Positions 3,001 through 30,517 of a DNA stretch of 64,000 bases are shown piece by piece (positions within the stretch are counted from its first letter, which is position 1; each line of letters starts with the position of its first letter). A program made the position numbers and the translations under genes. The DNA is from Chiloscyllium plagiosum (lineage: Eukaryota): positions 13,988,485 to 14,052,484 of the forward strand of contig NC_057753.1 in assembly GCF_004010195.1 (NCBI RefSeq), written 5' to 3'. The notes under the pieces are model-generated. The model did not search any database, was not told the origin of the DNA, and was given only the letters and a program-made list of their open reading frames with translations.

Positions 3001-4183
3001 TTGGACTCATATCCAAGTTTGCAATACTGAATCAAGGATGTTGGACAGACCAGTATATCACCAATTTAGCGATTCCTCTTGTTTACTGGCAGGTAAATTT
3101 AACACAGACGTTGGAAGCAATTTCTGCATTTGTAACCCCAATTGGGTTATACCAATTTAAAGTGATATCTTTCGGAATGAAGAATGCACCGCCAGATTCC
3201 AAAGAATCATGAACAGAGTTGTAGCTGGGTTAGCAAAACGTGCAGTCGATTTGTACTACGTCGTGATCTTTAGTAAGTCCTGAAAAGATCACATGGTAAA
3301 TTTGGCAGAGAACTTTGAGTTACTACGAGAAGCAAAACTGGTAATAAATTTAAGCAAAACACAATCCACGAAAGCAGTGGTGGCGTTCTTGAGACATAAC
3401 GTCGGTAATGGAAGTTTGTCACCATAGAGTGCAAAGACGAAGGCCGTCGAGGAATTTCCACATTCAAGAAAGAGGTGCTTCCAGATTTGGCACTCAGTGG
3501 ATTCTATCGGAAGTTTGTTCCAAACTTCAGCCCTGCAGTGGCATTGTTCACCGATTTGCTGAACAAGAACACAATGTTTAGGTGGGCAGAACAATGCTGG
3601 GAGGCATTCGACCATTTGGAAGCAATATTAAACACCGCACCAGTTTTTGCGGCACCAAACTTTTCAAAACCTTTCAACATTGTCATCGACGCTGGTGACA
3701 TAAGCTTTGGAGCTGTACTGCTACAGGAAGTTGATGATCGGTTTGAACTGCCATTTGGTTACTTTTCAAAGAAACCTAACATCCACCGGAAGAAATGCTT
3801 TACTGTCTAAAAAGTACTATTGAGTTTGGTACTGGCCTTGCAACATTTTAATGTGTATGTCACAAACAATGTGCTGGAGAAGGTAGTGTCCAGGATCATA
3901 AATCTCTTGTATACTTGGAACACCTTGAAGACATGAACATGAGACTATTTTTCAGTTATGGTCATTTAATTTTCAAATTGTACATGTTGCGGATCATAAG
4001 AATGCTCTAACTAATAAAGCATAGATAAGATTCATGTCTAATCAATGTTTTATGCATACTTGGGAAAAAGTTGTATGAACTTCGATTAAAGTTACATGTA
4101 ATTCATGATATTCTGGGTCAGGAATAGAGAAAATAACAAGCCAACCTTTCATGTAACGGTTCTTTTTTTGGTCTGGGGAGAGG
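1..4183 (+). mobile_element. Decayed Gypsy LTR retrotransposon internal region (Gmr1-like, PR-INT-RT-RH order), 5' part outside window
   Basis: Gag-like PHFEKKDVETFFISF (~570) and YEVVKQVILIAYQFVSEACRQHFR (~735-805); CCHC knuckle CSHCGEVGHLNSQC (~1203-1244); integrase H2C2/IKPAPLLP remnants (~2170-2400); RT KQHPY and FGMKNAP (~2680-3190); RNase H/connection FYRKFVPNFS...DAGDISFGAVLLQ (3500-3730); purine tract GGGGAGAGG directly before the LTR. Many stops and frameshifts. Confidence 0.85.
2768..2892 (-). mobile_element. Short non-autonomous Penelope-related repeat nested in the Gypsy RT
   Basis: Diverged copy of the element at 18369 and 57883; minus strand reads CTGATGA-A-GGGC-TCTT-GCCC-AAAAC, a hammerhead-like core with GAAA mutated. 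Confidence 0.7.
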
Positions 4184-4923
4184 TGTTATGAAGATGGAGA
4201 TGTGCAATGTGCCTTTAAGAAATTTGAAAAGCCAGCAAGGACTGACAAAGCACAGAGACTTCTGATCAAACTAAGAATCGTTTGATTCTTGGTCCAAAGA
4301 AGTTGCTACAAGTGAATTGCCAAGAAACAAAAACATCTTTAAATTCGGCCAACCAGTTTAAATTATGCCCCAAGAAACCAAAATCGAAACAAATTTGAAT
4401 GCAGTATTTTGATAATACTAAAACTAACGAAACAATTCGATATTTTGGGTAAAAAAAGCAGACATTCTGAACGTTTATGGTAGAATTGCCAAGGACCAAC
4501 ATTTTGACTGCTAACTGAAGAACTCTCTGTAAGGTACCTGTCCATAAGAGGTTTGCAAGCACATCATTGAAACCGACCAAGAGAAAATCTACAGGTGAAA
4601 ATCTACAAAGGAGAATCGACAAAGCTGACTGGTTTTGAAAAAGCAATTTCGTTTTTGTGATTCTTAATCAGGATTTTTTTTTATATCAGACCAGTGTTGT
4701 AGAATGTGAGGTATGAATAGGGTTAGGAGAAAAAAGTTGTAAATAGTTGTTGATTTTAATATTCTCTGTTGGATGCAAAGAATAAAATTGTTAATTTTTA
4801 CTCTAAATAGTGATCTCTGGGATCGGTCTTTGACTCACAAACTTAAACAGATTACAGCATGAGGGAACCTTTTTCTGTGTGGCTGCTGTAAATTAACAAA
4901 GGAGTTTATCCCGTGTCGCAACA
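4184..4923 (+). mobile_element. Gypsy 3' LTR (unit A)
   Basis: Starts TGTTATG right after the polypurine tract, ends ...GCAACA, contains AATAAA (~4781). Confidence 0.8.
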
Positions 4924-5059
4924 ACAATACATAAAAGTTGTTGCTGCATAGAATTCGTCTGATTCTGTTCAGTCTTATACGTCTCATCATTATCATCTCT
5001 CAGAAGATTTTGTAGGTCTCTCCCAATCAGGGTGCAATTGTTCATGCTTCTCAGTGTGA

Positions 5060-5075
5060 TGGCGCCCTCTGGTGA
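5060..5075 (-). promoter_or_regulatory. Candidate CTCF-binding element just 3' of the psiV RSS relic
   Basis: Minus strand TCACCAGAGGGCGCCA matches the CTCF core consensus CCASYAGRKGGCRS except at the first base; ~27 bp from the nonamer at 5103-5111. Confidence 0.65.
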
Positions 5076-5102
5076 TCACTGGTAAGTGGAACTCTCAGGG
5101 TG

Positions 5103-5827
5103 GATTTTTGTATGAGATCCGCTCTATTTGTTAATTTCACTACAGTTCTGACTGGCACATAGACACATGATACTATAGGAGATGAGGATATTCCTAACTT
5201 GTGGTTTAGTTATGTTGGCAGTTTTGTTCGGCTGAGAGGAAAATATATTACTGATGCAATATTCCTTCTGCACACTGCTCCCAGTATGTCGACCCTGGAA
5301 CTGTGGATGCTGCTTGTACTACAATAAGTAATTTTACATAACATCTCTTCAAATCGCAGCTTGGGAGATGTTCTTTCCCCCGTGAACTGTCATTTCAGCA
5401 AATGGCTGTTCAATTGCAAACTGATGACTCCATTTCAACATATGGAAATTAGTTTACATAAAGCGAGAATCTGCGCCAAAATCAGATTGATCAACACAAT
5501 AGCCACATTCACTGTTGTTCGACTAACAATTCGAAATGCAACAATGAGTTCTGCTTCTGATATGGACATAGCTTTTGAGAACGGATACAATGCTGAGCAA
5601 CTGTGAATCACATTTCCACATGTTGATTCCGGTCTCAGTAGATCTGCAGTGATGTAAGTTCGCTGTCAGAGCAGAAATACAGATCCCTGCCACACTTTCT
5701 TGCTGATCCAATCAATGGCGAGATTAGCGTAGCGGCAGAGATCTCCCCAGGAACAAAACATAGCACGAGAGAAGGAGACGGTTGATATCTGAATAGCAGG
5801 AAATGCAAGCCGGGGGCAGGATACCAT
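5103..5827 (-). pseudogene. Antigen-receptor V pseudogene A (inverted)
   Basis: Minus-strand translation across frameshifts: WSHQFAIEQPFAEMTVHGGKNIS..SC...L*YKQ...VRNILISYSIMCLCASQ; nonamer ACAAAAATC (5111-5103); leader-like MVSCPRLAFPAIQISTVSFS from the ATG at 5827. Splice acceptor lost and RSS spacing abnormal. Confidence 0.75.
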
Positions 5828-7329
5828 GCAGTCTAAATTTGACGATGCGTTCGGTAGATCTTCAACGTACACGGAGCTGGCTGAGTGGAACTAATGATGG
5901 TTACTTTTCCAATTTGTGACCTGTTCTGTATACATGAACCAGATTGCCCCTCATGTTTCAATAATCTATTCCTTGCGTTGATGCTACAGGGTGTTGTAAC
6001 ATTAACCAAATGAAGTTTTAATTGGAGGAAATAACATTTTAGGACATAAAGGCCATTTCTACTGTAGTAGATTGGGGAATGAAGAATCGTCCAACAAGGG
6101 CAGAACATCAGAAAATATAACGTCCAGCCTTTCCACCATTTCTGCTCCACACATGGTTACCAGCAAGTATTCAATGCTCCAATTCCAGAACGTAAATAAT
6201 GAATTAAGCAAGAGCAAGACAACATGAGGGAATGTGCTTTTCAAGGGCAAATGGTGGTGTCGTAGTAATGTCACTGCTCCTTCAAATTAAGAAGCTCAGA
6301 CTAAAGTTTCGCAGGCAGAATGCCTGGCACAATGCAAATTCAGGCAGTAAAAATCTGAAATCAGCTAGCCCAAGTAGCGTTCGACGTGCAAGTCTAATGG
6401 GTTTGTTGTATCCTGACACCATTTAGAGGAAGAATGATGATAAACCTATATTGTGTGGCGTGCATTTGACTGCACATATAGCCAGTGATATTAACTCTCT
6501 TTTGCTCTCTGAGAAGTCTTTGCAAGAACTCTTTTCCAGATGAATACTGTCTCTCACAGCAACATCCTCAACTCATGACGGAATGAAAATAAAAAGAAAA
6601 GTTACCGAATGAAGAACCCTTCTAAATTTTGTTTAAGTTACAGACTGTATTTTAAAACATATCAGCTGTCACTGCAACGTACGTTTTGCCAAACATATGT
6701 CTGTAGCAAAGTGATGAAGGGTCACAGTTCACTAAGAGAAGACATTCTTCCTCGTCTCTGCTTTCCCTTGCGCCTTTTTTTCTGAAACTCTACATTCTAG
6801 ACCTAGATTCTTACATGAATGGAAGCATTCTCTAAGTATTTACTCTGACAATTCCGTAATGGTGATAGCCCCAATCCTATATGTTTGAATAAGGTGACGT
6901 CTCATTACACTGAACTGCTATCTGTACAGTTTAAAATCATTTTTCAGTCTCGGGATCATCCTAACGAATCCTCTCTCAATTGACTCCAATGAAACATTAC
7001 CCTTATTTAAATAAGAGGATCAACAATGCTCCCATAACACCAATTGTGATGCCTCTAGTGACCTGCACAGTTACATTGAAAATTTCCTGCCCTAAAACTT
7101 CAAGCCACTTGACATATTACCTGATTCAAGTAACCACTAACTGTCTGTGTTCCAGACACATGAACCCAAACGTCTCTTAGTTTTGCAAATTTCTGCACTT
7201 TCTGTCCAATTGAAAAAGAACACTGTTGTTTACTCTTCTTTCCAAAATGAATGTTTTCACACTATACTTCAAGTACTAATATATTGCCCACTTGCAAATC
7301 TATTAACTCTCTTCAACCAGTTGTTTTTC

Positions 7330-7790
7330 TCTCAGTTTGTGTTTCTACAATGTTGCATCATGTGTAAATTTGGCTACAATGCATTCACTTTCTTTCTCCA
7401 AGGAATGTATATTTGCATATTGCAAAAAAAAAGAAAAATTCAATCTCTGAATTCTGTTGCATCTCACTAGTTCCAGGAAGCCAGGCTGAAAAAGAACAAT
7501 TTTCCCCACTTGCGTTTTCCTGCCTATCAGCCAAATCTTCATCCACAGCAATGTTTCAATTGCAACACATTGAGTTCTCATTTTCTGACAAACCATTCTA
7601 AGGTACTTTGGCAAAAAAAATCCTGGTACTCCTAAACGACACATATACCTGATATCCACTAATCAGTCGATGTGCATTTGCCTCAAAACACTCTGAAAAA
7701 TTAGTCAGTGATAATTTCACATTCGTGAATCATCACCAACTTTCCAAATGTGCTGGCATACATTCCCTCAAAATCTGTTGCAACAATTTT
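7330..7790 (-). mobile_element. Ancient CR1-like LINE RT fragment, present in all three units (also ~15930-16370 and ~27110-27540)
   Basis: Degenerate RT remnants (VAKFTHDATL resembling ISKFADDTKL; LLWMKIWLIGRK resembling WIxNWLxxRKQ). Confidence 0.55.
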
Positions 7791-9806
7791 CCATATGGGA
7801 AACACAAGTAGAAATGGCTGCAAAAATTCAGCAGATCTGGCAACATCTATGGAAATAGAGCTAATATTGTGAGTCAGGTGACCCTCTGCAGAACAGAATA
7901 TTGGACTCAGAATGTTAACTCTTTCTGTTTTGCTGATTCACCGTGAACACAAAACAGGAAAAGGCTATGTTGAAAGTTTGGATTGAGTTTGCTTTTGAAC
8001 TTTGTTGAGTATTTCCTGTCAGAAAGTGATCGCCTGAAAAACAGGTTTATTCTACTTGCTGGTAAACGTTAGTAAAGAGTCTACAATCGCCCAGCCGCAA
8101 CAAAAACCTTTCACGTGAAGCAGCATCAATTAAAACCCAGTGAAATACGTATCGTGCTTATTATGAACTGTCAGATAGTCGGTTAAATTATTATGAATGT
8201 CAACACGTGGTTTTGTTTTGGTAGAGAAGCTCCCACACTTTATCATGTCATATCTACTGCTCATGAACTGGTATTCCTGCACAGCCTATCAATCAGTCCC
8301 AACTTCAGTGGCACTATATGAGGCAGTCAACTTATTAACGACACCACTGAGTTTAAATCATTATTACAACAGTGATCTTTTAGAGGCCATAATTCATTAC
8401 CTGCCCGACGTTCAAGTGTGTATGCACAGACACGTTAACGGGAATCTTTGGCACTCATAACATCAAACTATGGGCAGTTTCACTTCATTCTGGGCATCTC
8501 CTATATAGAAGCAATTGAATGGATAACATTGAGTTCAACTTCTACCCTTGGCCCTCAGATATCAGGAACTGGAGAATAAACGAACAGTGAGCAGGTGGCT
8601 GTCAGCTGCTAAGTATGTCAACAATTAACCAATCGGCAGAGACTCATGATTTTATTAAATGTTAACTCCATTCTTGAGTGTAACAATTGTAATGTCAGCT
8701 TCCATTATGCAAATTCACATCAACTGCGTCCAAACAGGGACGTTACTTTATTTTCAGTCTTTACAACTTCAGCTCTCAAAAGTGGTAACTTATTATAACA
8801 TCGACATACTTCTCCATCCAGGCATCCCTGACATCCTTTACATGTGTTGTCTGCATATTTTGAAAAAGATGAGTTACCAGATAATACCAGATCAGTTGTG
8901 CAATTGTAACTTTATGCAGGTTCGAAGATGTGCAATCAGCGATAATCAAAAAAAAAATCCTAAAAGTTATTCGAATACGTCAGCTGCACATTCATTGCAA
9001 ATAGATCATAAGAATCGGGATAAAACTCCAATAAGCTTGATTTACATTCCTAACTTGCTCACTTCCGAACTTCGTAACTGGCGATGTTATCAGAGCTGAG
9101 GATGTCTCGATTTTCTGTTTTCTTTGCCTGTTTAAAAAATTGGGGCAATTCTACCAACAGTGATCTGTGGATGCCTGTCAGAACAATATATTACTGAAAA
9201 CTGAGAGTGACAATGACAAGACTCAAGAGGGAGCATCGCACAAAACTACTCCACCTTCGCACAAATTGAACAGCTGAAAGGCTGTGCAGGGAGAAACATT
9301 GACCAGCAATTAACAAAGAGACTGCTTGCTCCTGTGAAACCGAAAAAAAACAATGAACGCGTTTTCCGATGTAAATTAATTCCACAGTGAGCAATTGGCA
9401 GATTAAATATGGTGGAGTTAATAGAACTCGCCTCTAACATACATTGACTATTGCCCATTTTTGTTTTGTTGCTGCTAACATGGAGGGAGAAGGGATAATG
9501 TTTCCCTCGTATGTCACGCATAGTTTATCAGACGACACCACTTTCTAAACTCAACTGACTAGTGCCAGTGAGTGAAAAAGGAATTTCAATTTCAACAAAT
9601 ATATTTTCTTCTTGGAAATGACATATTTCGGACCATTAAGTGGCCAAAATGCTCAGTTTCAGGTAAAATGTCTTTGCTTACTCATTTGATACTCTACTTA
9701 TTACAGTATCCCATTAATTTCTCTTTTCTGACATAGACACAGACTTATGGTTATTGACATCATCAAACTATCAGACTCGAGTCATTCTATCGCATAATCC
9801 TCAGGA

Positions 9807-9816
9807 AATGACATCA
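9807..9816 (+). promoter_or_regulatory. CRE-like decamer in V1 promoter
   Basis: AATGACATCA about 95 bp upstream of the leader ATG; the same position in V2 reads AGTGACATCA and in V3 AATGACATCA; resembles the TCR V-promoter decamer AGTGAYRTCA. Confidence 0.6.
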
Positions 9817-9909
9817 ATTGAACACAGCCAATGCTGTCAATTTTTACTTATCTCACGCTCTGCAATGTTGTGAGGTATTGGAACATCGCTAGCATCAGGA
9901 ACAACAGCG

Positions 9910-9955
9910 ATGAGACTCACCGTCCTCTCTCTAGTGTTGATAACATTTCTTGTTG
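9910..9955 (+). CDS. TCR V1 leader exon (L-PART1)
   Basis: ATG...MRLTVLSLVLITFLV-G|GTAAG: hydrophobic signal peptide, 46 nt, phase-1 donor. Confidence 0.92.
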
Positions 9956-10670
9956 GTAAGAACTGAAGTTTATAAGATGGTTTAGTGTTAGATAAATGCA
10001 TTTTTGAAGCAGAATGATCCAGAATATCCAAGCAGGTTGTGCACTTGGATGTGCATTTTTTGTTTCTTTCTTATCTTTCGGCCTGAGATAAAAGGATACA
10101 TGGAAAACGATTTTTGTGGACGATGCTCGAATTTCGAGAATTTAACAGCCAGAAAATAATATGTAAGCTTCTATTCCATTCCCTACTGGGCAGGAGACTA
10201 TAGAGTAATCAAACTGACGTCTTTACAGTGATCAAAAGATCTTAGGCTATGGAAGGGAATATTGCACTTGAGAAGGATTCCATATTGATACATTTAATTG
10301 AAAAACAATAGCGGCACAAGATGATCCAAAACAGACTTCTAAATAAATTTGTTTATCCGCAGCATGTCTAGAATCTGGCTGTTGTTACCACAAGGACTTT
10401 TTGAGACAATAGGAAAATCGATTTTTAGGCAAGTGGATAAAATGAGGGAAGTAGAAATGATTGGGGATATTTACAGATAGGATTACAGGGAGAAATAAGC
10501 ACGATGCTTTTTACTTTCAGCTATATGAAAATGAGTGTGACGTGCCAAATGGACTTATTGTTACTTTGAATTCGGTCTAAATTTCGTTTACACCGTGAAA
10601 TTCCATCTTCAGTTCAGTTTATTTGCATATTTCTTTACTGATTTCCGTATTCCATAACATTGTCTTCCAG

Positions 10671-10974
10671 ATTTGAGCGATGGAGATTCTGTCACTCAGC
10701 GGGAGCCCTATCTCACACAGACTGAGGGAGAAGATGTCACTTTAAACTGCACCTACACTGGAAGCCCTAATTATGTCTTCTGGTACTTTCAGTATCCAGG
10801 CAGACAGCTCGAGTTCGCAATCAGGATGTATACGAGTACTGATACTGAAACGAAGGCGGATTTCGTTCAGACCCGATTTTCTTCTGCCCTCCAGCATGCA
10901 GGGAAGTTGTACCAATTGACAATTTTCGACGTCCTTCTGTCTGACACCGCAGTATATTACTGTGCAATGACTCT
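10671..10974 (+). CDS. T-cell receptor alpha/delta-type V exon (V1), apparently functional
   Basis: Acceptor tgtcttccAG; in frame with the leader: DLSDGDSVTQREPYLTQTEGEDVTLNC...VFWYFQYPG...LTIFDVLLSDTAVYYCAMTL; Cys23, Trp41 and Cys104 present; no stops. Confidence 0.93.
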
Positions 10975-11013
10975 CACTGTGATGTGAACCAGCTGAAGCC
11001 TCGTACAATAACT
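10975..11013 (+). other. V1 recombination signal sequence (23-RSS)
   Basis: Heptamer CACTGTG (10975-10981), exactly 23-nt spacer, nonamer ACAATAACT (11005-11013). Confidence 0.92.
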
Positions 11014-11834
11014 ATCACAGGTTTCTGGGTCACAGATGCGGCATCTTCAGCGTTGTTCTTAACAGGGTTTCGTGGAACTGTGGTGCATAGCTGTGAGTGA
11101 AAAGTCCCGGAGGACAATCCAGACAAAAGACCATTTAAAATTGCTCTCACCAAATACTGATTCCGATTGGCGCTTCAATCATATGAGGTCCGAAGTCTTT
11201 GCTGTTTATTTGAGGTTCCCTGTAAGGTCCTCACTCATATTCATTGAAAATATAAACTCTGCAATCGGCTTGATACTAAAAATATCCACGTAACTCCGTT
11301 TTATAAGAAGAAAAAGAACAGCTAGCTTTTCGATGTGGAATGCCAGCATGCAATAGTTGCCAGGCGAGGTAATCCTTGGTCATTACAGTAAACTGATTGA
11401 ACACATATCAGTTTTAAAAATACACATATAAAGACTAAGAATCTACAATACAATAAAGTGAAAATGGGATATTTTCACCAGTTGATAGGAAGATCGCCAA
11501 CAGTTCATGACAATAATCTGAAAGAACAGGTTTCATTGGTCAAGAATCCAAACGAATATAAAAGCCGGTTGGATAATTAATATTTGTGCCATAGAACGTT
11601 CGACGCACATTTAGAAATCCGAATTAGTCAGATAACGTTATGCGTGAATAAAAGTAATTGTTTTGTTTTTCTGCACCTTTCCGTGGTGCGATTATGTTAA
11701 CTTTAAATATCATTGAACGATTGGAAAACAATGTCAAGTCAGACATTGAGGGAAGCTATTCTGTCCGCAAGTTTTTAATTTACAAAACCATGCGAATTTC
11801 CTAATAATGTTTTTGAATAATGTTCAGATTAAAT

Positions 11835-12170
11835 CATGGAGTCCCTACAGTGTGGATACTGGCTCCTTGTCCCATCCATTCCTCACCAACCCTCCAAAGA
11901 GAACACCACCCAGACGCGTTTCCCTACAAAGCTGCCCGATATTTGACAAACTAATGCACCTAACCTACACATCCCTGAACAATAACGGCAACTTCAAATG
12001 GCCATTTCACCTAACCTACACATCTATGGATTTTGGGAGGAAACCGCATTACCCAAGACTGGGTGAGAAAGTGCAACCTCTACACAGCCAATTGCCCGAG
12101 GTTGGAATGGAGCCCGGGTCCCTGGTGCTCTGAGGCAACAGTGCTAGACACTGAGCCACTGTGCCATTTG
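11835..12170 (-). mobile_element. Old HE1-type SINE, shared by all units (also ~20655-20990 and ~31335-31680)
   Basis: Diverged match to the young SINE at 23528 (ctacagtgtgga ... gagcccgggtccctggtgctctgaggcaacagtgct). Confidence 0.7.
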
Positions 12171-12505
12171 CTGAGAAGCAAGGATGGAAAAGACAAAACC
12201 TTCCTCAATGCCGCATCTATTAATCTCTTTTGTTAAATATTTAGATACACATCAAATCACAGCTTTTCAAGAATCGTACATGTTGCAGATCATAAGAATG
12301 TAATTGCAGTTGCGTTATTCATCTAACTGATGAAGCACAGATACGATTGGTGCCATTTGAATGTTTTATGTCTATGTGGGAAGAAGTTAATATGAACTGA
12401 GATTAAAATCACATGTATGTCATGACGTTACGGGTCAGGAGTAGAGAAAATACCCAAGCCATATTTCAATTGTAATGGTGTTTTTTGTGTAATTTCAGGG
12501 CGAGG

Positions 12506-13415
12506 TGTTATGAAGGTGTAGATGTGTGCTGTAATTTTAAGACAGTTGAAAAGGTAGCAAAGACTGCCAAAGCACAGAGACTGCTGAACAAAGTAAGAAT
12601 GTAACAGTCGGTCAAAACAAATAGCTGCGGATGAATTTCCATGAAACAAAATCAAATTCAAATTCGGCCAATCATTTTCAATTCTGCTCCAAGACACCAA
12701 AGTGGAATCAATTCTGAACGCTGGATTTTGATAATATTAATGCCAAATAAGCGATCCGGTGTTATGGGGTAGAAAACCGGACATTCTGAACGGATAATAG
12801 GAGAATTGCCAAGGACCAACATATGGGCTGCTAGCTGAAGAGCTCTCTGAAAGATATCTGCCCATAAGCCGTTTGCACAGTACAAAAATGAAACTGACCG
12901 AGAGAAGACATACAGATGAAAATCTGCAAAGGAGAATCGACGAAACTGACTGGTTTTGAAACGTCATTGTTTTCTTTGTAAACTTTAATCGGGATTATTT
13001 TTATCAGACAGGTATTGTAGAGTGGGAGGTATAAGCATGGTTAAGAAAAACACATGCGTAAATAGTTGTTGGCTTTATTATTCTCTGTCGGACTTAAAAA
13101 TAAAGTTTTTAATGTTTACTTTAAATTGTGTTCTCTGGGATCGGTCTTTGCCTCTCAAATTCTGACAGATTACAGCACAAGGGGAACATTTTAGAGTGGG
13201 AGGTATAAGCATGGTTAAGAGAAACACATGCGTAAATAGTTGTTGGCTTTATTATTCTCTGTTGGACTTAAAAATAAAGTTTTTAATGTTTACTTTAAAT
13301 TGTGTTCTCTGGGATCGGTCTTTGCCTCTCAAATTCTGACAGATTACAGCACAAGGGGAACATTTCCTGTCTGGGTAGTTTAAATTAGCAGGGGAGATTA
13401 CCCCGTGTCACAACA
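12506..13415 (+). mobile_element. Gypsy LTR copy (unit B), preceded by pol 3' end and PPT remnant
   Basis: TGTTATGAAG...TCACAACA; homologous to 4184-4923 with the same flanks on both sides. Confidence 0.8.
13018..13365. repeat. 174-bp tandem duplication inside LTR B
   Basis: tagagtgggaggtataagc starts at 13018 and at 13192; copies nearly identical. Confidence 0.9.
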
Positions 13416-13586
13416 ACAATATTCAAAACTTGTTGCTTCGTGAGTAGAACTCACTAATATAAACTAAGTATGCAAGGAAATGTCGTCTGTTTCTGTTCAG
13501 TCTTATGGTCTCATCATTGTCATCTCTCAGAACATTTTGTGGGTCTCTCCTAGTCAGGGTGCAATTGTCCATGCTTCCCAGTGTGA

Positions 13587-13602
13587 TGGCGCCTTCTGGT
13601 GA
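13587..13602 (-). promoter_or_regulatory. CTCF-like element, unit B (one extra mismatch)
   Basis: Minus strand TCACCAGAAGGCGCCA, ~24 bp beyond the nonamer at 13627-13635. Confidence 0.45.
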
Positions 13603-13626
13603 TCACTAACTTGAACTTGAAGGATG

Positions 13627-14357
13627 GATTTTTGTACGAGATCTGCTATATTTGTCATTTCACTACAGTGCTAACTGGCACATAGGTGCATGAAAATGTA
13701 GGAGGAGAGGGTATTTCTGACTTTTAGTTTAATCTCTTACACGTTTCTTTTAAAGCTGAGAGTAAAATGCATTACTGATGCAGTTATATTTCTACACACT
13801 GGTCCCAGTAAGTCGAAAGATGAACTGTGGAGGCGACCTGTACCACAATACATAAGATTTGCATTACTCCTCTTCAAATTGCAGCTTGGGGAGATATTCT
13901 TTCCCTCTTCAACTGTCATTTCAGCAACGGGTTGTTCAATTGTGTACTGCTGGCTCCATTTCAACACATGGAAAATGCCAAATTAAAAAGCGAGAATCTC
14001 CACCAAAATCAGATTGACCAACGCAATTGTCACATTCACGGTGATTCGACCAAAAATAATATTTGATTTGCAACAATGAGTTCTGTTCTGACAAGGACAT
14101 GGTTTTGTCAGCGGATACAATGGTGAGGAATGGCGGAAGGCATTTGCACATGTTGATTCCTGTCTCTGTACATCTGCACTGGTGGATGTTCGCTGTCAAT
14201 GCAGAAATACAGATCCCTGCCACATTTCTTTGCTGATCATATCTGTAGCAAGATTTGTGTACCGGCAGAAATCTCTCCTAGAACAAATCTTGGCCAAAGA
14301 GAAGGAGACAGTTGAGAGGTGAATAGCATGAAATGGAAGCCATGGTGGGGATACCAT
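13627..14357 (-). pseudogene. Antigen-receptor V pseudogene B (inverted)
   Basis: WSQQYTIEQPVAEMTVEEGKNISPSCNLKRSNANL../LWYRSPPQFIFRLTG...KLKVRNTLSSYIFMHLCAS*; CACtgtAGTG, then 25 nt, then ACAAAAATC; leader-like MVSPPWLPFHAIHLSTVSFSL from 14357. Stops and frameshifts. Confidence 0.8.
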
Positions 14358-17300
14358 GCAGTCTAAATTTGATGATGTGTTCGATGAATCTCAGACATAC
14401 TCGGACCTGTTTGATTGGAATTAATTATGTTTACGTTTCCAATTTGTGCCCTATTCTTTATACATGGGCAAGATTACCCCTCATGTTTCAATAATCTATA
14501 TCTTGAGTAAAAGCTTCAAGATAATTTAACATTAACCAGCTGGAGGTTCAATCATTGGAAATACAATTTTAGATAATCGAGGCCATTTCTACTGCACCAG
14601 ATTGGGGAATGAAGAATCGTCCAGTAGAGAGAGAGCATCAGCAAATATAATGTCCGACTATGCCATCATCTCTGCTTCGCAAATGAATACCTCCAAGTAT
14701 TCAATATTTTAATTCCAGAACGTAAATACTGAATTAAGAAATAGCATAACAACATGAGGGAATGTACGTTGCAGGGGCAAACGGTCGTGTTGTAGTAATG
14801 TCACTGCTCCTTCGAATTAAAAAAAGCTCAGGCTGAAGATCGCAGACAGAATGCCTGACACAATGCAAATTCAGTTAGTTAAATTCTGAAATCACGTAGC
14901 ACAAGTAGCGGTCGACGTGAAAGAGTAATGGGTTTGTTGTATACTGACATCATTTACAGGAAGAAGGATGCCAAAATTATCTGGTGAGGTGTGCATTCCA
15001 CTTCATACATAAGGAGTCTGTAATGTGGACTCTCCTTTGCTCTCTGAGAAGACCTGGAAAGAACTCAGTTCAAGATTAATATTGTCTTTCATGGTGACAT
15101 CCTCAATTCATGACGGAATGAAACTAAAAAAGAAAAACGTTACTCAATGAAGGGCCATTATCCTTTGAAATTTTGTTTAAGTTACAGACTATATTTTAAA
15201 ATATTTTAGCTGGCATTGTTAATGAAATTTTGTCCAAATAGCGGTCTATGGCAACGTGCTGAAGAGTAGCACTCACGGAGCGAAGACATTCTTCCTCATC
15301 TCTGTCTTAATTTGAGCTTTTTATTCTGAGACTGTTCCTTCTAGTCCCACACTCTCACATGAATGAAAGCATTTGTCCCAGTGTTTACCCCGAGAAGTCC
15401 TCAATGGTAATGGCCGCAGTCTGATATATTTCAAAAAGATGACCTCTCATTCCACTGAACTGTTATCTCTACTGTTTGAATCCTTTTTTTTTGTTTGTAC
15501 GAAAAATCTCTTCAGTCTCGCGATTATTCTAATGAATTACCTCTGAACTGACTCTCATGAAACTTTGCCTTTATTTGAATAAGTGGGTCAAAATGCTCCC
15601 AGAACACCAACTGTGATACCTGTGTCCTGAACAGTTAAATTGCGAATTCCCTGCTCTGAAGTTTCAAACCTCTTGACGTAGGGCCAACGCTCCGTTATCC
15701 TTCTGATTACCTGATTCACGTGAGCACTATTGACTGTGTTCTGTGCACGTATACCTTAAATTCTCTTTGTATTGCAACTTTCTTCACTTTCAGTCCATTT
15801 GAAAAAGAACACTGCTGTTTACTCTTTCACACGTTTCCACACTACCCGTCAAATGCTAATATATCGCCCACTTGCAGCATCTGTTAACTCTCTTATACCA
15901 GTTGTATTATTTTCAGAGTTTGCGATTTTACTTATTTTTGTATCAATTGCAAATTTGGCTGCAGTGCATTCGTTCCTTTCTCCAAGGTATGAACGTTTGC
16001 ATATTGGAAAATATTATCATCGGATCAGTGATCCCAATGGGACCCCAATAGTTCCAGGAGGCCAAGCTGAAAATTAACTGCTTTCCCCATTCGCTTTTTA
16101 TGTTTATCAGTCAATTCCTCATCCATAGCAATATTGCACTTCCAACAATGGGTTCTTATTTCCTGACAAACCATTCTGAGGTACCTTGTCAAGTGTTTCC
16201 TGGCACTCCAAAATGATACATATGCCTGTTGTCCTCTATCCAGTCGATTTGCAATGGACTCACAATTCTCTGAAAAAATAATCAGTCCTAATTTAGCTTT
16301 CCTGATGAGTAACTGAATTTCAAAATGTGCTGGTATACCTTCCTCCATAACTTATTACAACACATTTTCCATATGTGAAACACAAGCAGAAATCGCTGCA
16401 GAAATTCAGCAGATCTGGCAACATCTATAGAAAGAGAACTAATGTTGAGGGTACGTTGTCCCTCTGCGGAAAAGAATATTGGTTTCAGAATGTTAACTAT
16501 GTTTTTTTTCTGATCCACCATGATTTCAAAACATGCAAGTGCTGTGTCGAAAATTTGGATTGAGTTTGCCTTTGAACGTTGAGTATTTTCTGTTAGAAAG
16601 TATTCGCCTGAACATTAGGTTTTTCTACTTGCTGGTAAACGTCAATAAGGAGTCTGCAATAACCCAGTCACAGTAAATCCTTTCATGTGAAGGAGCATCA
16701 ATTAAAACTCAGTGAAATACATGTCGTGTTTTATTACAAACTGTCAAAGAGACAGTTAAATTATTATGAATGTCAACATGTGTGTTTTTGTTTGACAGAG
16801 CAGCTCCCACGTTTTATAATTACATATCTACTGCTAACAAACCGCTATTCCTACACAGCCGATCAATCAGTCCTAACTTCACTGATACTGTGTGAAGCAG
16901 ACACCATCTTAGCGACATCACTGAGTTTAAATCATCATTATAGCACTAATCCTTTGGAGGCCATAATACGTTACCTGCCCGAAGTTCAAGTGTCTATGCA
17001 TAGACACCTTAATCATTGGCACTCAAAACAACATAGTATGGGCAATTTCACTTCAATCTATGCATCTCCAAGATATAAGTAATTGAACGGATGACATTGA
17101 GTTCAACTCCTGAACTGGGCCCTCTCATGTCAAGAACTGGAGAATAAACGAACAGTGAGCAGATGGCTGTCAGCTTCTAACCATGTCAACACTTAACTAA
17201 TCGGCAGAAACTCGTGATGTCACTGAATGTTAACTCCATTCTTGCGTGTAACTATTGCAATGTGAGTTTGCATTATGAAAATTCACATCAACTGCCTCCA

Positions 17301-18368
17301 AACATGGCTGTTACTTTATATTTATTCTTCGCAACTGCAGCTCTCAAAACTGGTACCTCATTATAAAATTTACACACTACTCCATGCAGGTAGCCCTGAT
17401 ATCGTTTAGATGTGATGTCTGTATAATTTGAGGAAGATGAGTTATCAGATAATGCCAGAGCATAATGATAACCAATTGAAGTTCTGCAATTGTAAATTTC
17501 TGCGTTTGGAAGAAGTGCAAACAGCGATAAGTTTTCAAAATTAATGGTGGCAAATCGTAAAAGTTATTTGAAGATGGCTGCTGCACATTCATTGCAACTA
17601 TATCAGCAGAATCGGGAAAATGCCCAACAAGCCTAAGTTACATTTCTAACTTCCTCACCTCCTAACTTCGTAACTGCTGATGTTATCAGAGCTGAGGATT
17701 TCCTAGATTTTCTGTCTACATCGACTGTGTAAAAAGTGGGGGTAATTTTACAAACAGTGAGCTGTTGATGACTGTCAGAGCAATATATTACTGAAAACTG
17801 AAAGTGACAACGAGAGGACTCAAGCGGGAGTATCACACAAAACTACTACTACGTTGGCAACCAAGTGAACAGCTGAAGGGCTGTGCAAGGAGAAACATTG
17901 ACCATTATTTAACAAAGAGCCTGTTTGTTCCTATCAAACCAAAGAAATGAACGAGCTTTCCGTTGCAAATTAATTCCACAGTTAGCAACAGGCAGATTAA
18001 GTATGATGGAGTTATTACAAGTCCCCTCTAACATACGCTGCCGATTGCCCTCGCTCGCTGTTTTGGTGCTGCTAACACGGAGTGAGTAGGGATAACCATT
18101 CCCTCATATGTCACGCATTGAAGTTTATCAGATGTCACCACTCTCTAAACCCAACTGACGAGTGCCAGTGAGTGAAAAGGAACTTTGAATTTCAACAAAT
18201 ATATTTATTTCCCGTAAATGACATATTTCAGACCATTAAGTGTCTAAAACGCTCAGTTTCAGACAAACGTGTCTTTGCTTACTCATTTGATACGCTACTC
18301 ATTACAATGCCCATTATTGTTTCTCTTCTCTGACATCGACTTAGACATATGGTTATCTACATCATCAG

Positions 18369-18561
18369 GAGAAAGTGAGGTCTGCAGATGCTGGAGATCA
18401 GAGCTGGAAATGTGTTGCTGGAAAAGCGCAGCAGGTCAGGCAGCATCCAGGGAACAGGAGAATCGACGTTCCTGAAGAAGGGCTTATGCCCGAAACGTCG
18501 ATTCTCCTGTTCCCTGGATGCTGCCTGACCTGCTGCGCTTTTCCAGCAACACATTTCCAGC
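18369..18561. mobile_element. Palindromic non-autonomous Penelope-derived insertion in the V2 promoter
   Basis: 15-bp TSD TATCTACATCATCAG (18354-18368 and 18562-18576); perfect 69-bp inverted repeat (18402-18470 / 18494-18562); absent at the equivalent site in units A and C. Confidence 0.88.
18472..18496 (+). ncRNA. Minimal hammerhead-ribozyme-like core
   Basis: CTGAAGA-A-GGGC-TTAT-GCCC-GAAAC: CUGANGA box, 4-bp stem II, GAAA box, as found in Penelope pseudo-LTRs. Activity not shown. Confidence 0.55.
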
Positions 18562-18616
18562 TATCTACATCATCAGACGATCAGTCTCGAGTCATTCTAT
18601 CGCGTAATCCTCAGGA

Positions 18617-18626
18617 AGTGACATCA
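18617..18626 (+). promoter_or_regulatory. CRE-like decamer in V2 promoter
   Basis: AGTGACATCA, 92 bp upstream of ATG 18719. Confidence 0.65.
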
Positions 18627-18718
18627 ATTGAACAAGCCAATGCTGGCAGTGTTTTATTGCCTGACACTCTGCAATGTTGTGAAGTATTGAAACATCGCTA
18701 GCATCAGGAGCAGCAGTG

Positions 18719-18764
18719 ATGTGGCTGTCCGTCCTCTCTCTGATGTGGGTAACATTTCTTATTG
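18719..18764 (+). CDS. TCR V2 leader exon
   Basis: MWLSVLSLMWVTFLI-G|GTAAG, 46 nt, phase 1. Confidence 0.92.
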
Positions 18765-19495
18765 GTAAGAACTGAACTTTTAAACGAGGATTTAATCCCC
18801 AGATGTATGCATTTTTTGAAGCAGAATGATCGCATTAGATAAGTATCTGAGCATTTGTACACTGGGATGTGCACTTCTTGTGTCATTCTTGGCTGTAGAC
18901 CTAAGGTATACAACCGCACATGGAATACGACTTGTGCAGATGATGCTTGAATTTCAAGAATTGAACAGTCAGAAAATAATATCTAAGCTTCTGATCTATT
19001 CCCTACTGGTCACAAGACTATAGGGTAAGCAAACTGACATCTTTACACTGATTAAACGGTCTTAGGTTCTGGACAGAGAAGGGAATATTGTACTTGGGAA
19101 GGATTTCATATTTATAAGTTTAATTGAAAAATAATTAAGTGGCACAAGATCCAAAACAGATTTCTAACTAATTCTTTTTAGATGCAGAATGTCGAGAATC
19201 TGGCTGTTTTTTTCCACAAGGGGTATTTGAGACAACTGGAAAGACGTATTTTAAAGAACGTGCATAAAAATAGGGATGTAGAAATGGTTGGAGATATTTA
19301 CAGATAGAATTACAGGGAGAAGTAAGCAGGCTACTCGTTGCTTTTAGTTGCATGGACATGAGCGTGATGTGCTAAAGGCACTTTTTGTTGCTCTCAATTC
19401 TGTCTGTCCTGTTTACACCATGAAATTCCATCTTCAGTTCAGTTTATTTGCATATTTCATTACTGATTTCCGCGTTCCGTAACATTGTATTCCAG

Positions 19496-19799
19496 ATCTG
19501 AGCGATGGAGATTCTGTCACTCAGCGGGTTCCTTACCTCACACAGACGGAGGGAGAAGATGTCACCTTTAACTGCACTTACACTGGAAGCCCTAATTACG
19601 TGTTCTGGTACCGTCAATATCCAGGCAGGCAGCCCGAGTTCGCAGTCTGGAGGTACACGAATGCTGAGGCTGAAAAGAAGGCGGATTTCGCTCAGACCCG
19701 GTTTTCTATTGCCTTCCAGCGTACAGACAAGTTTTACCAATTGACAATTTCGGACATCCTTCTGGCTGACGCCGCAGTATATTACTGTGCAACGAGTCT
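19496..19799 (+). CDS. T-cell receptor alpha/delta-type V exon (V2), apparently functional
   Basis: Acceptor tgtattccAG; DLSDGDSVTQRVPYLTQTEGEDVTFNC...VFWYRQYPGRQPEF...LTISDILLADAAVYYCATSL; 304 nt like V1; open frame. Confidence 0.95.
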
Positions 19800-19838
19800 C
19801 ACAGTGACGCGAACCAGCTGAAGCCTCGTACAATAACT
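19800..19838 (+). other. V2 23-RSS
   Basis: Consensus heptamer CACAGTG, 23-nt spacer, nonamer ACAATAACT. Confidence 0.95.
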
Positions 19839-21832
19839 ATCACAGGTTTCTGGGTCACAGATGCTGCACCTTCAGCGGTTTTTTTTAACAGTGTTTCATA
19901 AGTGGAAATGTGGTGCAGAACTGTGAGTGAAACGTCCTGGAGGACAATCGAGACAAAATACCATTTCAAATTGCTCTCAGCAAGCACTGATCCTGATTGC
20001 CCCTTCAACCATGTGAGGATTGTTTATTTGAGGCTCCCTGTAAACTCTTCATTCATTTAAAATACAAACTCCGCAACCGTCTTGGTACTAACAATATCTG
20101 TGTAACACTGTTTTAGGAGAAAAAAAGAACAGACAACCTTTTGATGTAAAATTCTGCAATGCAATAGCTGCCAGGTGAGGAAATCCTTGGTAATTACAGT
20201 AAACTAATTGAACACCTCTCAGTTTTAAAAATACACACGTAAACACTAAGAATTTACAATATAATAAAGTGAAAAGGGATATTTTCACGAGACGAAGGAA
20301 TCATTGCGATTATTGTTGTTTATAGCAATAATTTAAAAAGACAGATTTCCGTCCAGAAGCCGATTGAATATAAAAGCCTGTTGGATAATTAATATTTCTG
20401 CCATAAAATGTTAGAAGCACATTTAGAAATCTGAACTCATCAGATAACAGTATGTGCGAATAAAAATAATTGTTTTGTTTTTCTGAACCATTCGGTGGTG
20501 CGATCATATTGTAGTTAAACATTCATGAACGATTGGAAAGGAATGTCATGTCAGACATTTAGGGAAACTACTCTGTCCCCAAGTTTTTATTTAACAAAAC
20601 CGCGTGAATTTCCTAATAGCACATTTTTATAACGTTCAAAAGCTTTTCCGTGTAGATCATACAGTCCCTACAGTGTGGAAACAAAATCTTTGGCCCAACA
20701 AGTCCACGCCAACCCTCTGAAGAGTATGCCACATAGACCTATGTCCCTTCCATATAGTCGCAAACTTATCATAGTAATGCAGCTAACCTACACATCGCTG
20801 AACATTATGGGCAACTTAGCATGGCCAATTCACTTAAGACAAACCATATTTGGATACCAGAACATCCCAGTCAAATCCACGCAGCCACGGGGAGAATGTG
20901 CAACGCCGACACAGTCGCCCGAGGCTGGAATCGAGCCCGGGTCACTGGCGCTGTAAGGCCAGAAATGCTCACTACTAAACCACTGTGCTTCTTGCAAAGG
21001 AGAAAAGATGGAAAATACAAAACGTTCCCCAGTGCTGCATCTATTAAATCTTTTTGTGAAAAAATTGTGTCTATTTCAAATGACAGCTTTTGAAGAATGC
21101 ATTTCCAAAGAGTGTATTTATATGCAGGCTGCACACTTCCCCTTATCTCCATTTGTCCAACGTTGACCAACACTAACAGCATTTTTGAGCGCAGCTCGTT
21201 TGGTTCCTGTAACCGTGTCTCCCAACCCGCAGCAACACACAGATCGTGAAGTTTCCCTCATTTTCAAAGAGTCCAGGGATGCACAAAATCGAGTACGAAC
21301 CCCATTTGCTCTCACAGTATTCCCGTATGTATGGGAATTGCTCTTAATACCCACGTCCACATGGCAAAATTGAAAACATGTGCATTGACTTTGTTCGAAT
21401 AGCTGAAATTAATAATCACCAAATTTCTTCAAATTGTATCACTTTATTCAGCACCTGTGACACCAAATCCGCAAAACTATTGCCTCCAGAAATAGAGAAA
21501 CATAGAACATGAAAAATATGTCACCAAGTTATAGCATGGATTCTAAAACAGTGAAAACAGCAAAAGGGGCGATTTCTATTGCCAAATTATGTAAATGCTA
21601 ACATTTTACAACTCCGAGCTTAACAGTTAAGAGAGCTGCATCAGTATGGTAAGAGTAGATAAAACATGCCTAACCATTTGCAGAGAGAATGTTGGATTTG
21701 AACAAAAGGAGTTGATGATTAATTATTTTAGCTGAGAGACTTAAGTATCTAATCTGATTGGGTCTATTTCCGAAATTGTTACCAGGTTAGACACCTGACA
21801 GCTTCTTCAGACCTCAGCTCATGATGTCAAGG

Positions 21833-22128
21833 TTTTTTTTTAGATTGCTTACAGTGTGGAAACAGGCGCTTCAGCCAAACAAGTCCACACCGACCCGCAG
21901 AAGCGCAACCCACCCAGATCCCTACATTTACTCCTTCACCTAACACTACAGGCAATTTAGTAGGGCCAATTCACCTGACCTGCACATCTTTGGACTGTGG
22001 GAGGAAACCCACGCAGACACGGGGAGAATGTGCAAACTCCACACAGTCAGTCTCCTGAGACGGGAATTGAACCCGGGTCTCTGGCACTGTGAGGCAGCAG
22101 TGCTAACCATTGCGCCACCGTGACGCCC
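21833..22128 (-). mobile_element. Young HE1-type tRNA-derived SINE (unit B only)
   Basis: Reverse complement begins GGGCGTCACGGTGGCGCAATGGTTAGCACTGCTGCC; absent from the homologous site in unit C (~32520). Confidence 0.88.
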
Positions 22129-22726
22129 AAAAAGGTGGTGACCAATATCACATTACGTCAACATCAAGTGGTTCAGGCCCTGGATCTCACTTTTTTTTAA
22201 AAATGATGTACCCCAGCACAATGGGAAGTGCAGACATGCAAGAAGCCAGCTCACCACCATGTTCTCCTTGGCAGATAGGTTGGTCAAAGCCTCACTTCCA
22301 ATTTCTCTGTGACAATGGTTCCCCATGTTGGATAACAGATTGAACCCCTTGTCTCACACATATTTAGTTGAATGGCCTCTGGCTAATGTGTATTTACTGA
22401 TGTAGAACGTGTTGAGATGATGGAAAGCCTTGCAGAGAAGAAGATGAGACTATTTCATTGCATTCTTTGGTTACACACATTTAATATACCAATCGGAAAT
22501 GTTGCAGGTCGTAAGAAAGTAATCACAGTTGTGCTATCGCGGATGTAACTGATGAAGCATAGATACGATTGGTATCATTGGATGTATTATGTATACGTGT
22601 GAAGAACTTAATATGAACTGAGATTAAAATCACATGCATGTCATGAACCTCTGGGTCAAGAATAGAGAAGATAAATAAAACATCTTTTCATTATGATGAT
22701 TCATCTTTTTTTGTTCCAGGGAGAGG

Positions 22727-23451
22727 TGTTATGAATGTATAGAAGCGTACTGTACCTTTAAGCGAGTTGAAAAGCTGGCAAGGACTGACAAAGCACAAAC
22801 ACTTTTCAACAAAGTAAGAAAGTAACAGTTGGTCGAAACAAGTAGCTACAGATGAATTGCCATGAAACAAAAACTAACTGAATTCGACCAATCAGTTTAT
22901 ACTATGCTCCAAGATACCAAAGTGGTATAAAATTTGAATGTAGTATTTTGATAATATTAAACCAATGAGACGATCCGATGTTTTGGCGTAGAAAACTGAA
23001 CATTCTGAACGGTTAGTGGGAGAATTGCCAAGGACCAACATATGGACTGCGAGCTGAAGAGCTCTTTGGAAAGTACCAGTCCATAAGAGGTTTGCACAGC
23101 ACAACATCGAAAACGATCTACAGATGCAAATCTACAAAGGCGTATTGACAAAGCTGACTGGTTTTGAAACGTGATTTTTTTTTGTAAAGCTTAATTGGGA
23201 TTTTTAAGATCAGACCATTATTGTAGAGTGGGAGGTATAAATAAGGTTAAGAGAAAATAAAAGGGTGTAAATTCTTGTTGGCTTTAATATTCTCTGTTGG
23301 ACTTAAAGAGTAAAGTTTTTAATTTTTACATTAAATATTGATCCCTGGGATCGATTTTTGCCCCTCAAAGTTTGACAGATTACAGCACGAGGGGAACCAT
23401 TTCTGTGTGGCTAGTTTAACTTGGCAAAGGAGCTTACCCCGTGTAGGAACA
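22727..23451 (+). mobile_element. Gypsy LTR copy (unit C)
   Basis: GGGAGAGG-TGTTATGAA ... GGAACA; homologous to LTR A and LTR B with shared flanks. Confidence 0.8.
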
Positions 23452-23527
23452 ACAATACAAATAAACTTGTTGCAGGAATGAGTAGAACTCGCTAACACAA
23501 ACGAAGTGCGCAAGGAAAACGCTTCAC

Positions 23528-23846
23528 GGGCGGCACGGTGGCCTAGTGGTTAGCACTGCTGCCTCACAGCGCCAGAGACCTGGCTTCAATTCCCGCCTCA
23601 GGCAACTGACTGTGTGGAGTTTGCACGTTCTCCCCGTGTCTGCGTGGGTTTCCTCCGGGTGCTCCGGTTTCCTCCCACTGTCCAAAGATGTGCAGGTCAG
23701 GTGAATTGGCCATGCTAAATTGCCTGTAGTGTTAGGTAAGGGGTAAATGTAGGGGTATGGGTGGGTTGCGCTTCGGCGGCTCGGTGTGGACTTGTTGGGC
23801 CGAAGGGCCTGTTTCCACACTGTAAGTAATCTAATCTAATCAAAAA
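23528..23846 (+). mobile_element. Young full-length HE1-type SINE (unit C only)
   Basis: GGGCGGCACGGTGGCCTAGTGGTTAGCAC (A box), B-box-like TTCAATTCCC, (TAATC)n tail. Confidence 0.9.
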
Positions 23847-23982
23847 ATTTCTGTTCAGTTTTGTGCGTCTCATCATTATCATCTCAGAAGATTTTTGGGT
23901 TTCTCGCAGTCAGGGTGCAATTGCTCAGGATTCTCAATGTGATGGCTCCTTCTAGTGATCACTAACTGGAACTCTCAGGATG

Positions 23983-25341: not shown

Positions 25342-25786
25342 GCAGTCTAAATTTGATGATGTGTCCAATGAATCTCTGATATACATAGTTGAGTGGAACC
25401 AATGATTGTTATGTTTCCAAATTGTGATCTGTTATTTGTAGACGAACAAGATTAGCCCATATGTTTCAATAATCTATTTATTCAGTAAAAAGCTACAGGG
25501 TGTCGTAATATTAACCAGATCGAGGTTCAATCATTGGAAATACCATTTTAGAACATTAAAGTCCATGCAGTCTAAATTTGATGATGAGTCCAATGAATCT
25601 CTGATATACATAGTTGAGTGGAACCAATGATTGTTATGTTTCCGAATTGTGATCTGTTATTTGTAGACGAACAAGATTACCCCATATGTTTCAATAATCT
25701 ATTTATTCAGTAAAAAGCTACAGGGTGTCGTAATATTAACCAGATCGAGGTTCAATCATTGGAAATACCATTTTAGAACATTAAAG
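25337..25786. repeat. 225-bp tandem duplication over the psiV-C start codon and promoter
   Basis: tccatgcagtctaaatttgatgatg at 25337 and at 25562; copies near-identical. Confidence 0.9.
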
Positions 25787-28700: not shown

Positions 28701-29683
28701 GGTTTCAAATAAAATGTGGAGGCCAATCGGAAAAGTTACTTGAAGATGGCTGCTGCACATTCATTGCAACTATGTCGTCAGATTCGGGATAAAGCCTCGA
28801 TAATCTTGATGTACATTACTAACATTCTCACTTCTGAACTACGTAATTGGTGATGTTATTAGAGCTGAGGATATCCACGACTTTTTGTTAACATTGACTG
28901 TTTAAAAAGTAGGGACAATTTTACCAACAGTGAACTGTGGATGCCTGACAGAGCAAAATATTACTGAAAACTGAGAGTCACAATGACAGGACTCAAGAGC
29001 GAACATCGCACAAATCTACCGCCAACTTGGAATCAAGTAAACAGCTGAAGCCCTGCGGAAGGAGAAACATTGACCAGATTTTAACAAGCGATTGTTCGTT
29101 CCTATCAGCCAAAAACAAGAGTGAAATTTCTGATGCAAATTAATTCCACAGTGAGCAATTGGCAGATTAAATGTCGTGGCGTTATTAACGTTCCACCCTA
29201 ACACACGCTGCCAATTGCCCCTGTTCGCTTCTTTGACGCTGCAAACACAGAGAGAGTAGGGATAATCTTTCCTCATATGTCATATATAGAAGCTTATCAG
29301 ACGTCACCACTCTCTAAACTCATCTGACTTGTGCTAGTCAGTGAAAAAGGAACTTCCTATTTCAACAAATATATTTATTTCATGAAAACGACATATTTCA
29401 GACCACTAAGTGGCCAAAAAAGCTTAGTTTCAGATCAAGCTGTCATCGTTTACTCAATTGATAATTTACTCATTCCAATGCCCCATTAATGTTTCTCTTC
29501 TCTGACACAGGCATAGATTTATTGTTATCGACATCATCAGACTACCAGACTCGAGTCATTCTATCTCGTAATCCTCAGGAAATGACATCAATTGAATACA
29601 GCTAATGCTGTCAGTTTTTACTTGCCTCATGCTTTGCAATTTTGTCAGGTATTGGAACATTGCTAGCATCAGGAGCAGCAGCA

Positions 29684-30478: not shown

Positions 30479-30517
30479 CACAGTGATGGGAACCAGCTGA
30501 TGCATCTTACAATAACT
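30479..30517 (+). other. V3 23-RSS (intact)
   Basis: CACAGTG + 23 nt + ACAATAACT. Confidence 0.92.

Follow-up and report, generated by a model that had tools for sequence, protein, structure and literature searches.

Control of V(D)J recombination by loop extrusion has been dissected almost only in mouse, where the CTCF motif associated with VH segments reads on the VH sense strand and the sites point toward the D, J and C segments (partly after PMC6746451 and PMC5859386). According to PMC6746451, RSS-associated sites lie 17-19 bp behind the nonamer in mouse and 19 or 48 bp behind it in human, occur in 11 of 16 VH families in mouse and in three of eight in human, and are as a rule missing from non-functional VH segments. 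The same paper places further mouse VH CTCF sites 2-3 and 5-6 kb upstream of the leaders and describes mouse VH sites as oriented alike relative to VH transcription (PMC6746451). Mutating the CTCF site on the RSS side of a VH lowers the use of that VH, and repairing such a site raises use (PMC7930373). At mouse Tcra/Tcrd, CTCF sites are placed upstream of V promoters or between genes (PMC5859386 Table 2), 129 of the 144 CTCF sites in the V array face J-C (PMC5859386), and the RSS-near sites listed in that table comprise two at Trbv segments and none at Trav or Trdv segments. The available parts of PMC10772921 and PMC4995090 give no RSS-side CTCF site for Trdv5 or Trbv31. For elasmobranchs, loop extrusion has been deduced from skate TADs with orientation-biased CTCF motifs (PMC10115646), and the loci for IgH and for TCR alpha/delta are described as linked and exchanging V segments in an account whose available text does not mention CTCF (PMC12227049). 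The germline V set of the nurse shark was described as incomplete (PMC5931798). Our literature search, which covered few subscription papers, found no work on CTCF at shark antigen-receptor V segments.

The window analysed here is a 64-kb stretch of genomic DNA from the shark Chiloscyllium plagiosum. It contains a tandem array of V segments and CTCF-like motifs, with the following features:

3970-32700, tandem array of three units, 8-10 kb each: unit A, 3970-12271; unit B, 12264-22300; unit C, 22491-32700
5060-5078, minus strand, CTCF core motif of unit A (19-mer), the top matrix match in the window at 19.9 bits
5088-5096, minus strand, partial CTCF upstream module (6/9), with a 9-nt linker in A and a 6-nt linker in B and C
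5103-5147, minus strand, RSS of pseudo-V A, 23-type and broken: decayed heptamer 5147-5141 and nonamer 5111-5103 with a 29-nt spacer
5148-5441, minus strand, pseudo-V A, TCR alpha/delta-type, of the family of proteins P0008 and P0010-P0014
9910-11013, plus strand, intact V-alpha/delta of another family (V-A): leader 9910-9955, V exon to 10974
13587-13605, minus strand, CTCF motif of unit B, 16.7 bits, identical to the three-copy majority sequence
13627-13976, minus strand, pseudo-V B with broken RSS: nonamer 13635-13627, 28-nt spacer
18719-19838, plus strand, intact V of unit B (V-B): RSS 19800-19838; 88% identical to C. punctatum protein P0001
23943-23961, minus strand, CTCF motif of unit C, 13.5 bits, one high-information base gone
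23983-24323, minus strand, pseudo-V C with broken RSS: nonamer 23991-23983, 31-nt spacer
30167-30517, plus strand, frameshifted V of unit C: RSS 30479-30517

The three units are ~80% identical over 7,682 well-aligned columns, and each pairs a minus-strand pseudo-V with a V on the plus strand. The three Vs on the plus strand are V-set domains whose RSSs, all with a 23-nt spacer, lie at 10975, 19800 and 30479, the RSS of V-A occupying 10975-11013. Because their best relatives are Chiloscyllium punctatum proteins and one rearranged V-J record, we infer that the window is part of a shark TCR alpha/delta V array. A search of the window for D, J and C segments found none, nor any J-like segment. The nonamer ACAATAACT is present in all three plus-strand copies (11005-11013, 19830-19838 and 30509-30517), and relatives P0002 and P0004 stop at the matching place, so this variant nonamer looks family-wide; the tails of these two proteins end at the nonamer and place the flanks outside their reach. 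A 12-spacer RSS-like string on the plus strand (26060-26087, 1+2 mismatches) has a paralogue near 6329 and no adjoining J-like exon; it sits in what is presumably a SINE remnant and is probably a chance occurrence. Two near-perfect (98%) two-copy tandem duplications, at 13014-13365 (174 bp, unit B) and 25337-25786 (225 bp, unit C), are either recent or assembly artefacts.

Beyond the units, the window holds a fourth, unrelated V-alpha-like pseudogene on the plus strand (38849-41076), with its leader near 38849, its exon beginning at about 39470, and its 3' end and decayed RSS near 41038-41076. A LINE-like insertion with a tandem duplication of 550 bp (39631-40734) interrupts this exon. The leader is preceded, 230-500 nt upstream, by two weak minus-strand CTCF-like matches at 38332-38350 (14.3 bits) and 38603-38621 (10.4 bits), a placement like that of mouse Trav sites that fits the Tcra/Tcrd pattern better than the motif at 5060-5078 does. 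Past this last V and a gap of 500 N (44561-45060), a single-ORF GPCR of the rhodopsin family (51058-51981, minus strand; PF00001, E 3e-20) could be the boundary of the V array on one side. An older duplication, 59224-60999 versus 61521-63081 (about 70% identical), together with 56381-56614, shows no V-like coding match.

The minus-strand pseudo-Vs belong to a different V family from their plus-strand neighbours. Pfam searches of their single-frame translations returned an Ig family for none of the three copies. Frameshift-aware alignment recovered a full V domain from each; with an intact V as reference the scores were 47-65 (null 24.9 +/- 3.7, highest of 40 controls 40), and with the family member P0010 they were 116-172, which overturned the idea that the pseudo-V is not a V at all. 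An assignment to TCR-beta, hinted at by a 'CAS' end, was rejected; the intact relatives end in 'CAM/CAL', as is alpha/delta-like. Pseudo-V A carries frameshifts, a stop and, in common with B and C, a deletion of ~12 nt (about four residues) after the conserved Trp. Their heptamer-nonamer spacers are 29, 28 and 31 nt in A, B and C, or 26, 25 and 28 nt in the other heptamer register, against a norm of 23. The pseudo-V exon and its RSS were dead before the ~9-kb unit triplicated, and with spacers that depart from 23 nt and exon damage in every copy, the motif here cannot serve its own RSS. The pseudo-V had been described as inverted, a term that applies only by comparison with the plus-strand Vs; the window yielded no J-like segment.

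CTCF motifs were scored with a 19-column matrix (JASPAR MA0139.1 counts). Copy A is the strongest match in the 64-kb window (19.9 bits, p about 1e-7), and copies B and C rank second (16.7 bits) and fourth (13.5 bits). The unit A 16-mer (5060-5075, minus strand) starts 27 nt beyond the final base of ACAAAAATC, the nonamer at 5111-5103, and shares its strand with the adjoining pseudo-V, all of which agrees with the sequence-only reading. The variants that this reading quoted for units B (13587-13605) and C (23943-23961) were likewise confirmed; both lie 24 nt behind their own nonamers. Among simulated order-2 Markov windows, 2 of 400 attained the 19.9 bits of copy A and 24 of 400 the score of copy B. 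With three independent RSS classes, the chance that a same-strand site of 16.6 bits falls at most 100 nt 3' of any one is ~1.5e-4, and a site of such strength, nearness and V-strand orientation is expected in about 1.5e-4 to 1e-3 of cases. Agreement with a consensus is less special than the matrix score: CCASYAGRKGGCRS at no more than one mismatch has a single match in the window, as it does in 28 of 100 shuffles. Copy A differs from the published genome-wide CTCF consensus by one mismatch, from the published human VH-CTCF consensus by two, and from the mouse VH consensus by three. The CTCF-like motif is real, in position and in orientation. A search for ChIP runs that include 4400-14399 listed none, which bears on CTCF occupancy in neither direction.

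The plus-strand Vs differ in this respect. None of the three, which represent one family, has a CTCF site in the 1 kb 3' of its RSS, the best match there reaching 2.8 bits, and within about 1 kb of the RSS of the fourth V the only listed CTCF match has 6.3 bits and is about 470 nt away. In the window as a whole, seven minus-strand and three plus-strand matches reach at least 10 bits, with ~2.9 expected by chance; three of the seven are the paralogous motifs themselves, and a strand bias of CTCF matches was rejected as a sign of locus polarity. A transposon-borne origin of the site was also rejected, its flank matching only units B and C within the window.

Conservation within the window is unexceptional. 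The 19-mer is identical among A, B and C at 16 of 19 positions, a value matched by 15% of 7,034 19-column windows outside the intact exon, against a background near 70%. When neutral decay was simulated from A, copies B and C as strong as those seen arose in 9% of runs. At the C4 position, each window copy carries T. Copy C is the odd one out in 765 columns, compared with 661 and 672 for the other two (p 0.009), so the G of copy A at position 12 looks like a gain; P0011 likewise has A but P0012 has G at this position, so the better base of copy A may have been either gained or kept. Retention of CpG in the motif was set aside as a sign of selection, with 103 of 374 CpG columns kept in two or three copies. 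A 9-mer resembling the CTCF upstream module (reference 9-mer from bioRxiv 2023.12.05.569896) accompanies the motifs, and is weak evidence since a match of at least 6/9 is found at 1.3% of window positions. A 3-nt insertion in copy A shifts this 9-mer and lengthens the linker from 6 to 9 nt, outside the 2-7 bp range given in PMC12885311; the module is optional, occurring in 13-15% of CTCF sites (PMC12885311 and bioRxiv 2023.12.05.569896). The proposal that the unit A site had stayed near-perfect to serve neighbouring live Vs is not borne out by this ordinary identity and displaced 9-mer, nor by its geometry: its direction is the reverse of that of the intact Vs, and 5.9 kb separate it from the V-A RSS.

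Intact members of the pseudo-V family are present in other sharks. A HMMER search of representative proteins with a profile of pseudo-V pieces matched four, from which P0008 and P0010 (Heterodontus francisci) and P0011 (C. punctatum) were kept, whereas P0009 (6450 aa, eight short stretches), probably an artefact of repeats, was not retained. A second search added C. punctatum P0014 and the ENA record P0012, whose identity to P0013 of Scyliorhinus torazame is 76%; a word-index search with the pseudo-V fragment alignment gave no match. The six family proteins are 52-76% identical to one another and 31-41% identical to the plus-strand family. Their best PDB matches include human V-delta1 and TCR-alpha chains, and one relative is named TCR alpha-like. 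P0008 (XP_067869829.1) joins a member of the pseudo-V family to a V that is 49% identical to V-B and on the same strand. This co-orientation, as opposed to the opposite orientation in the window, suggests a local inversion before the triplication.

Gene models that run through a V exon keep the RSS and 3' flank as protein, and so offer a rough view of the flank across species. Three of the six family proteins, P0010, P0011 and P0012, continue past the RSS into the 3' flank, no two of them in the same frame; P0008, P0013 and P0014 splice or stop before the site and were left out of the site analysis. Manual reading of the codons is compatible with a heptamer and a nonamer 23 nt apart in P0011, and with a spacer of 22 or 24 nt in P0010 and P0012. 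Protein read-through conceals third codon positions, so all bit scores obtained in this way are upper bounds, and in P0010 four of the eight most informative bases are invisible at the protein level. A small intron could also be concealed in gene models of this kind. In all three proteins the top best-case forward CTCF window of the tail falls at the homologous position, with best-case scores of 17.3, 13.2 and 9.9 bits among 228, 81 and 96 windows (P0010, P0011 and P0012, respectively) and random-peptide frequencies of about 2e-4, 1e-3 and 4e-3. The site is 24, 24 and 25 nt behind the nonamer, compared with 24 nt in window copies B and C. Frameshift-aware alignment maps the window flank onto the tails unaided for P0011 (copies A and B) and P0012 (copies B and C). 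Where copy B reads SPEGA, the tail of the horn shark protein P0010 reads SAEGA; the underlying change, from C to G, falls on position 7, at which both bases are tolerated by the matrix. P0012 has T at the near-invariant G13, and P0011 has three off-consensus bases. Up to 6-8 of the nine upstream-module bases are possible in the three relatives, with up to 8/9 in P0011 and P0012. For comparison, one of the 141 windows in the spliced tail of P0014 reaches 12.0 bits by chance, which shows that a single best-case score around 10-13 carries little weight unless the position matches too.

With the homologous spot CTCF-compatible in three of three informative tails, the CTCF-like motif appears to be a trait of the V family that predates the pseudogene, and the view that the site is older than the duplications in the window is upheld. 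We infer that the site arose once, before horn sharks and carpet sharks split. These lineages separated ~200 million years ago.

The case for selection on the site is suggestive only. Under a neutral retention model, with divergence calibrated on flanking codons, the probability of retention is 0.012-0.20 for P0010, 0.15-0.23 for P0011 and 0.15-0.26 for P0012, and 0.09 for copies B and C given A. Fisher's method combines these into p 0.007-0.09, which is optimistic, as the lineages share branches. P0010 differs from copy B by at least three base changes in the seven motif codons, five in six upstream codons and 11 in eight downstream codons, and its sole change in the core falls at the C/G-tolerant position 7. 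Overall, differences from B affect 3 of 27 determinable high-information positions versus 14 of 45 low-information positions (one-sided p 0.046, again with shared branches), and one of the three high-information differences goes toward the consensus.

The explanation that we favour, with a probability of about 0.5, is that the motif is a CTCF element on the RSS side, particular to this V family, that probably works in intact members by making extrusion stall, is a relic in this window, and is convergent with the mouse VH sites. In working members of the family, CTCF likely binds the motif in the 3' flank of the V. Bound CTCF would stall cohesin loop extrusion and hold the adjacent RSS at the RAG recombination centre, and by analogy with mouse VH81X-type sites the use of the adjoining V would be raised. 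The copies in the window are probably relics, remnants in slow decay next to dead Vs. Neutral carry-over could produce much of the same pattern: the motif could have arisen once by chance near the ancestral V and been duplicated neutrally in slow-evolving shark DNA, with no role in recombination. The ordinary 16/19 three-way identity, shared by 15% of windows, speaks for such a history, as do a nonamer-to-motif flank that is also alignable in the relatives, damaged versions of the motif in two of them, a conservative combined neutral p of 0.09, and a one-mismatch consensus match in 28 of 100 shuffles. We nevertheless consider this history less likely, given that the strength, closeness and V-strand placement of the site together are expected in only about 1.5e-4 to 1e-3 of cases, that changes shun the high-information columns, and that the horn shark motif is better preserved than the DNA just 3' of it.

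Two further readings assign the site a wider role. The unit A site may have been kept or improved after its V died, anchoring loops or insulating for the neighbouring, oppositely oriented intact Vs. Such co-option fits best if D and J segments lie at lower coordinates, where the minus-strand sites would face the recombination centre and the plus-strand Vs would join by inversion. Copy A is indeed the strongest CTCF match in the 64 kb, seven of the ten matches of at least 10 bits are on the minus strand (three being these paralogues), and the site is 4.8 kb upstream of the V-A leader, with mouse VH sites lying 2-3 and 5-6 kb upstream (PMC6746451). Each of the three pseudogenes also retains a site, while mouse pseudogenes are usually without an adjacent one (PMC6746451 and PMC7930373). 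However, there is no excess conservation (joint neutral retention 0.09), the V of unit B is intact too yet its site is weaker, the upstream-module spacing of copy A is disrupted, and the site is opposite to the intact Vs, in contrast to mouse VH sites that share one orientation relative to VH transcription; we judge co-option improbable. Less probable still, and in our view very doubtful, is descent of the V-RSS-CBE arrangement from a homologous module of the gnathostome ancestor that is shared with mammalian D-proximal VH segments, perhaps through ancient linkage of IgH and TCR alpha/delta. The site is on the same side of the RSS and at a distance of the same order as in mammalian VH, it is old within sharks, and the elasmobranch loci for IgH and for TCR alpha/delta are linked and exchange V segments (PMC12227049). 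Against such descent, the shark family is TCR-V-like by its PDB matches and the name of a relative, the other V family in the window lacks the site, RSS-side sites are found in only 11 of 16 mouse VH families, two Trbv and no listed Trav or Trdv, and the mouse distance is fixed at 17-19 bp where the shark has 22-25.

What appears to be new here is a V family, with intact members in other sharks, in which three of six gene models read past the RSS and all three carry a CTCF-compatible spot at the homologous position. A family with a fixed RSS-side motif and with intact members in at least two named species, together with a sister family without the motif, provides a direct test of whether CTCF is coupled to the RSS. 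If the element is functional, this coupling must have originated on two or more occasions, or else date back more than 400 million years.

Among mouse TCR loci, Tcra/Tcrd is of the same kind as the shark locus, with many CTCF sites scattered among its Vs, but the shark motif is on the RSS side, not upstream of promoters or intergenic. The two RSS-near sites of mouse Tcrb indicate that TCR Vs can gain RSS-side sites singly (PMC5859386 Table 2), although the shark site is in another locus. The closest resemblance is to the VH sites. As in mouse D-proximal VH segments (7183, Q52, S107 and others) and in human VH, the core is a few tens of bases 3' of the nonamer of a 23-RSS, immediately behind it and on the strand of the V; it is also bound to one V family rather than to all Vs, and was passed on with the V at duplication. 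Copy A alone passes the two-mismatch test against the human VH consensus (PMC6746451). The distance to the start of the mouse consensus is 22 nt in B and C and 25 nt in A, as opposed to 17-19 in mouse, and to the start of the human consensus it is 23 nt in B and C and 26 nt in A, as opposed to 19 or 48 in human. Unlike the mammalian sites, the shark motif is predicted from sequence and belongs to a TCR alpha/delta V rather than to IgH, and its window copies adjoin pseudogenes with dead RSSs, whereas mouse non-functional VH segments typically have no site and the mammalian class is defined by functional Vs with working RSSs. In this small sample, the three plus-strand Vs and the fourth V do not have the arrangement expected of a general shark module. 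The sequence-only reading had likened the geometry to that of mouse D-proximal VH segments and suggested a module dating to the gnathostome ancestor; the likeness holds, but the ancestral module is not supported, given the three plus-strand Vs without a site, the TCR alpha/delta locus and a spacing of 22-25 versus 17-19. The resemblance of the shark site to the mouse VH sites is most likely convergent.
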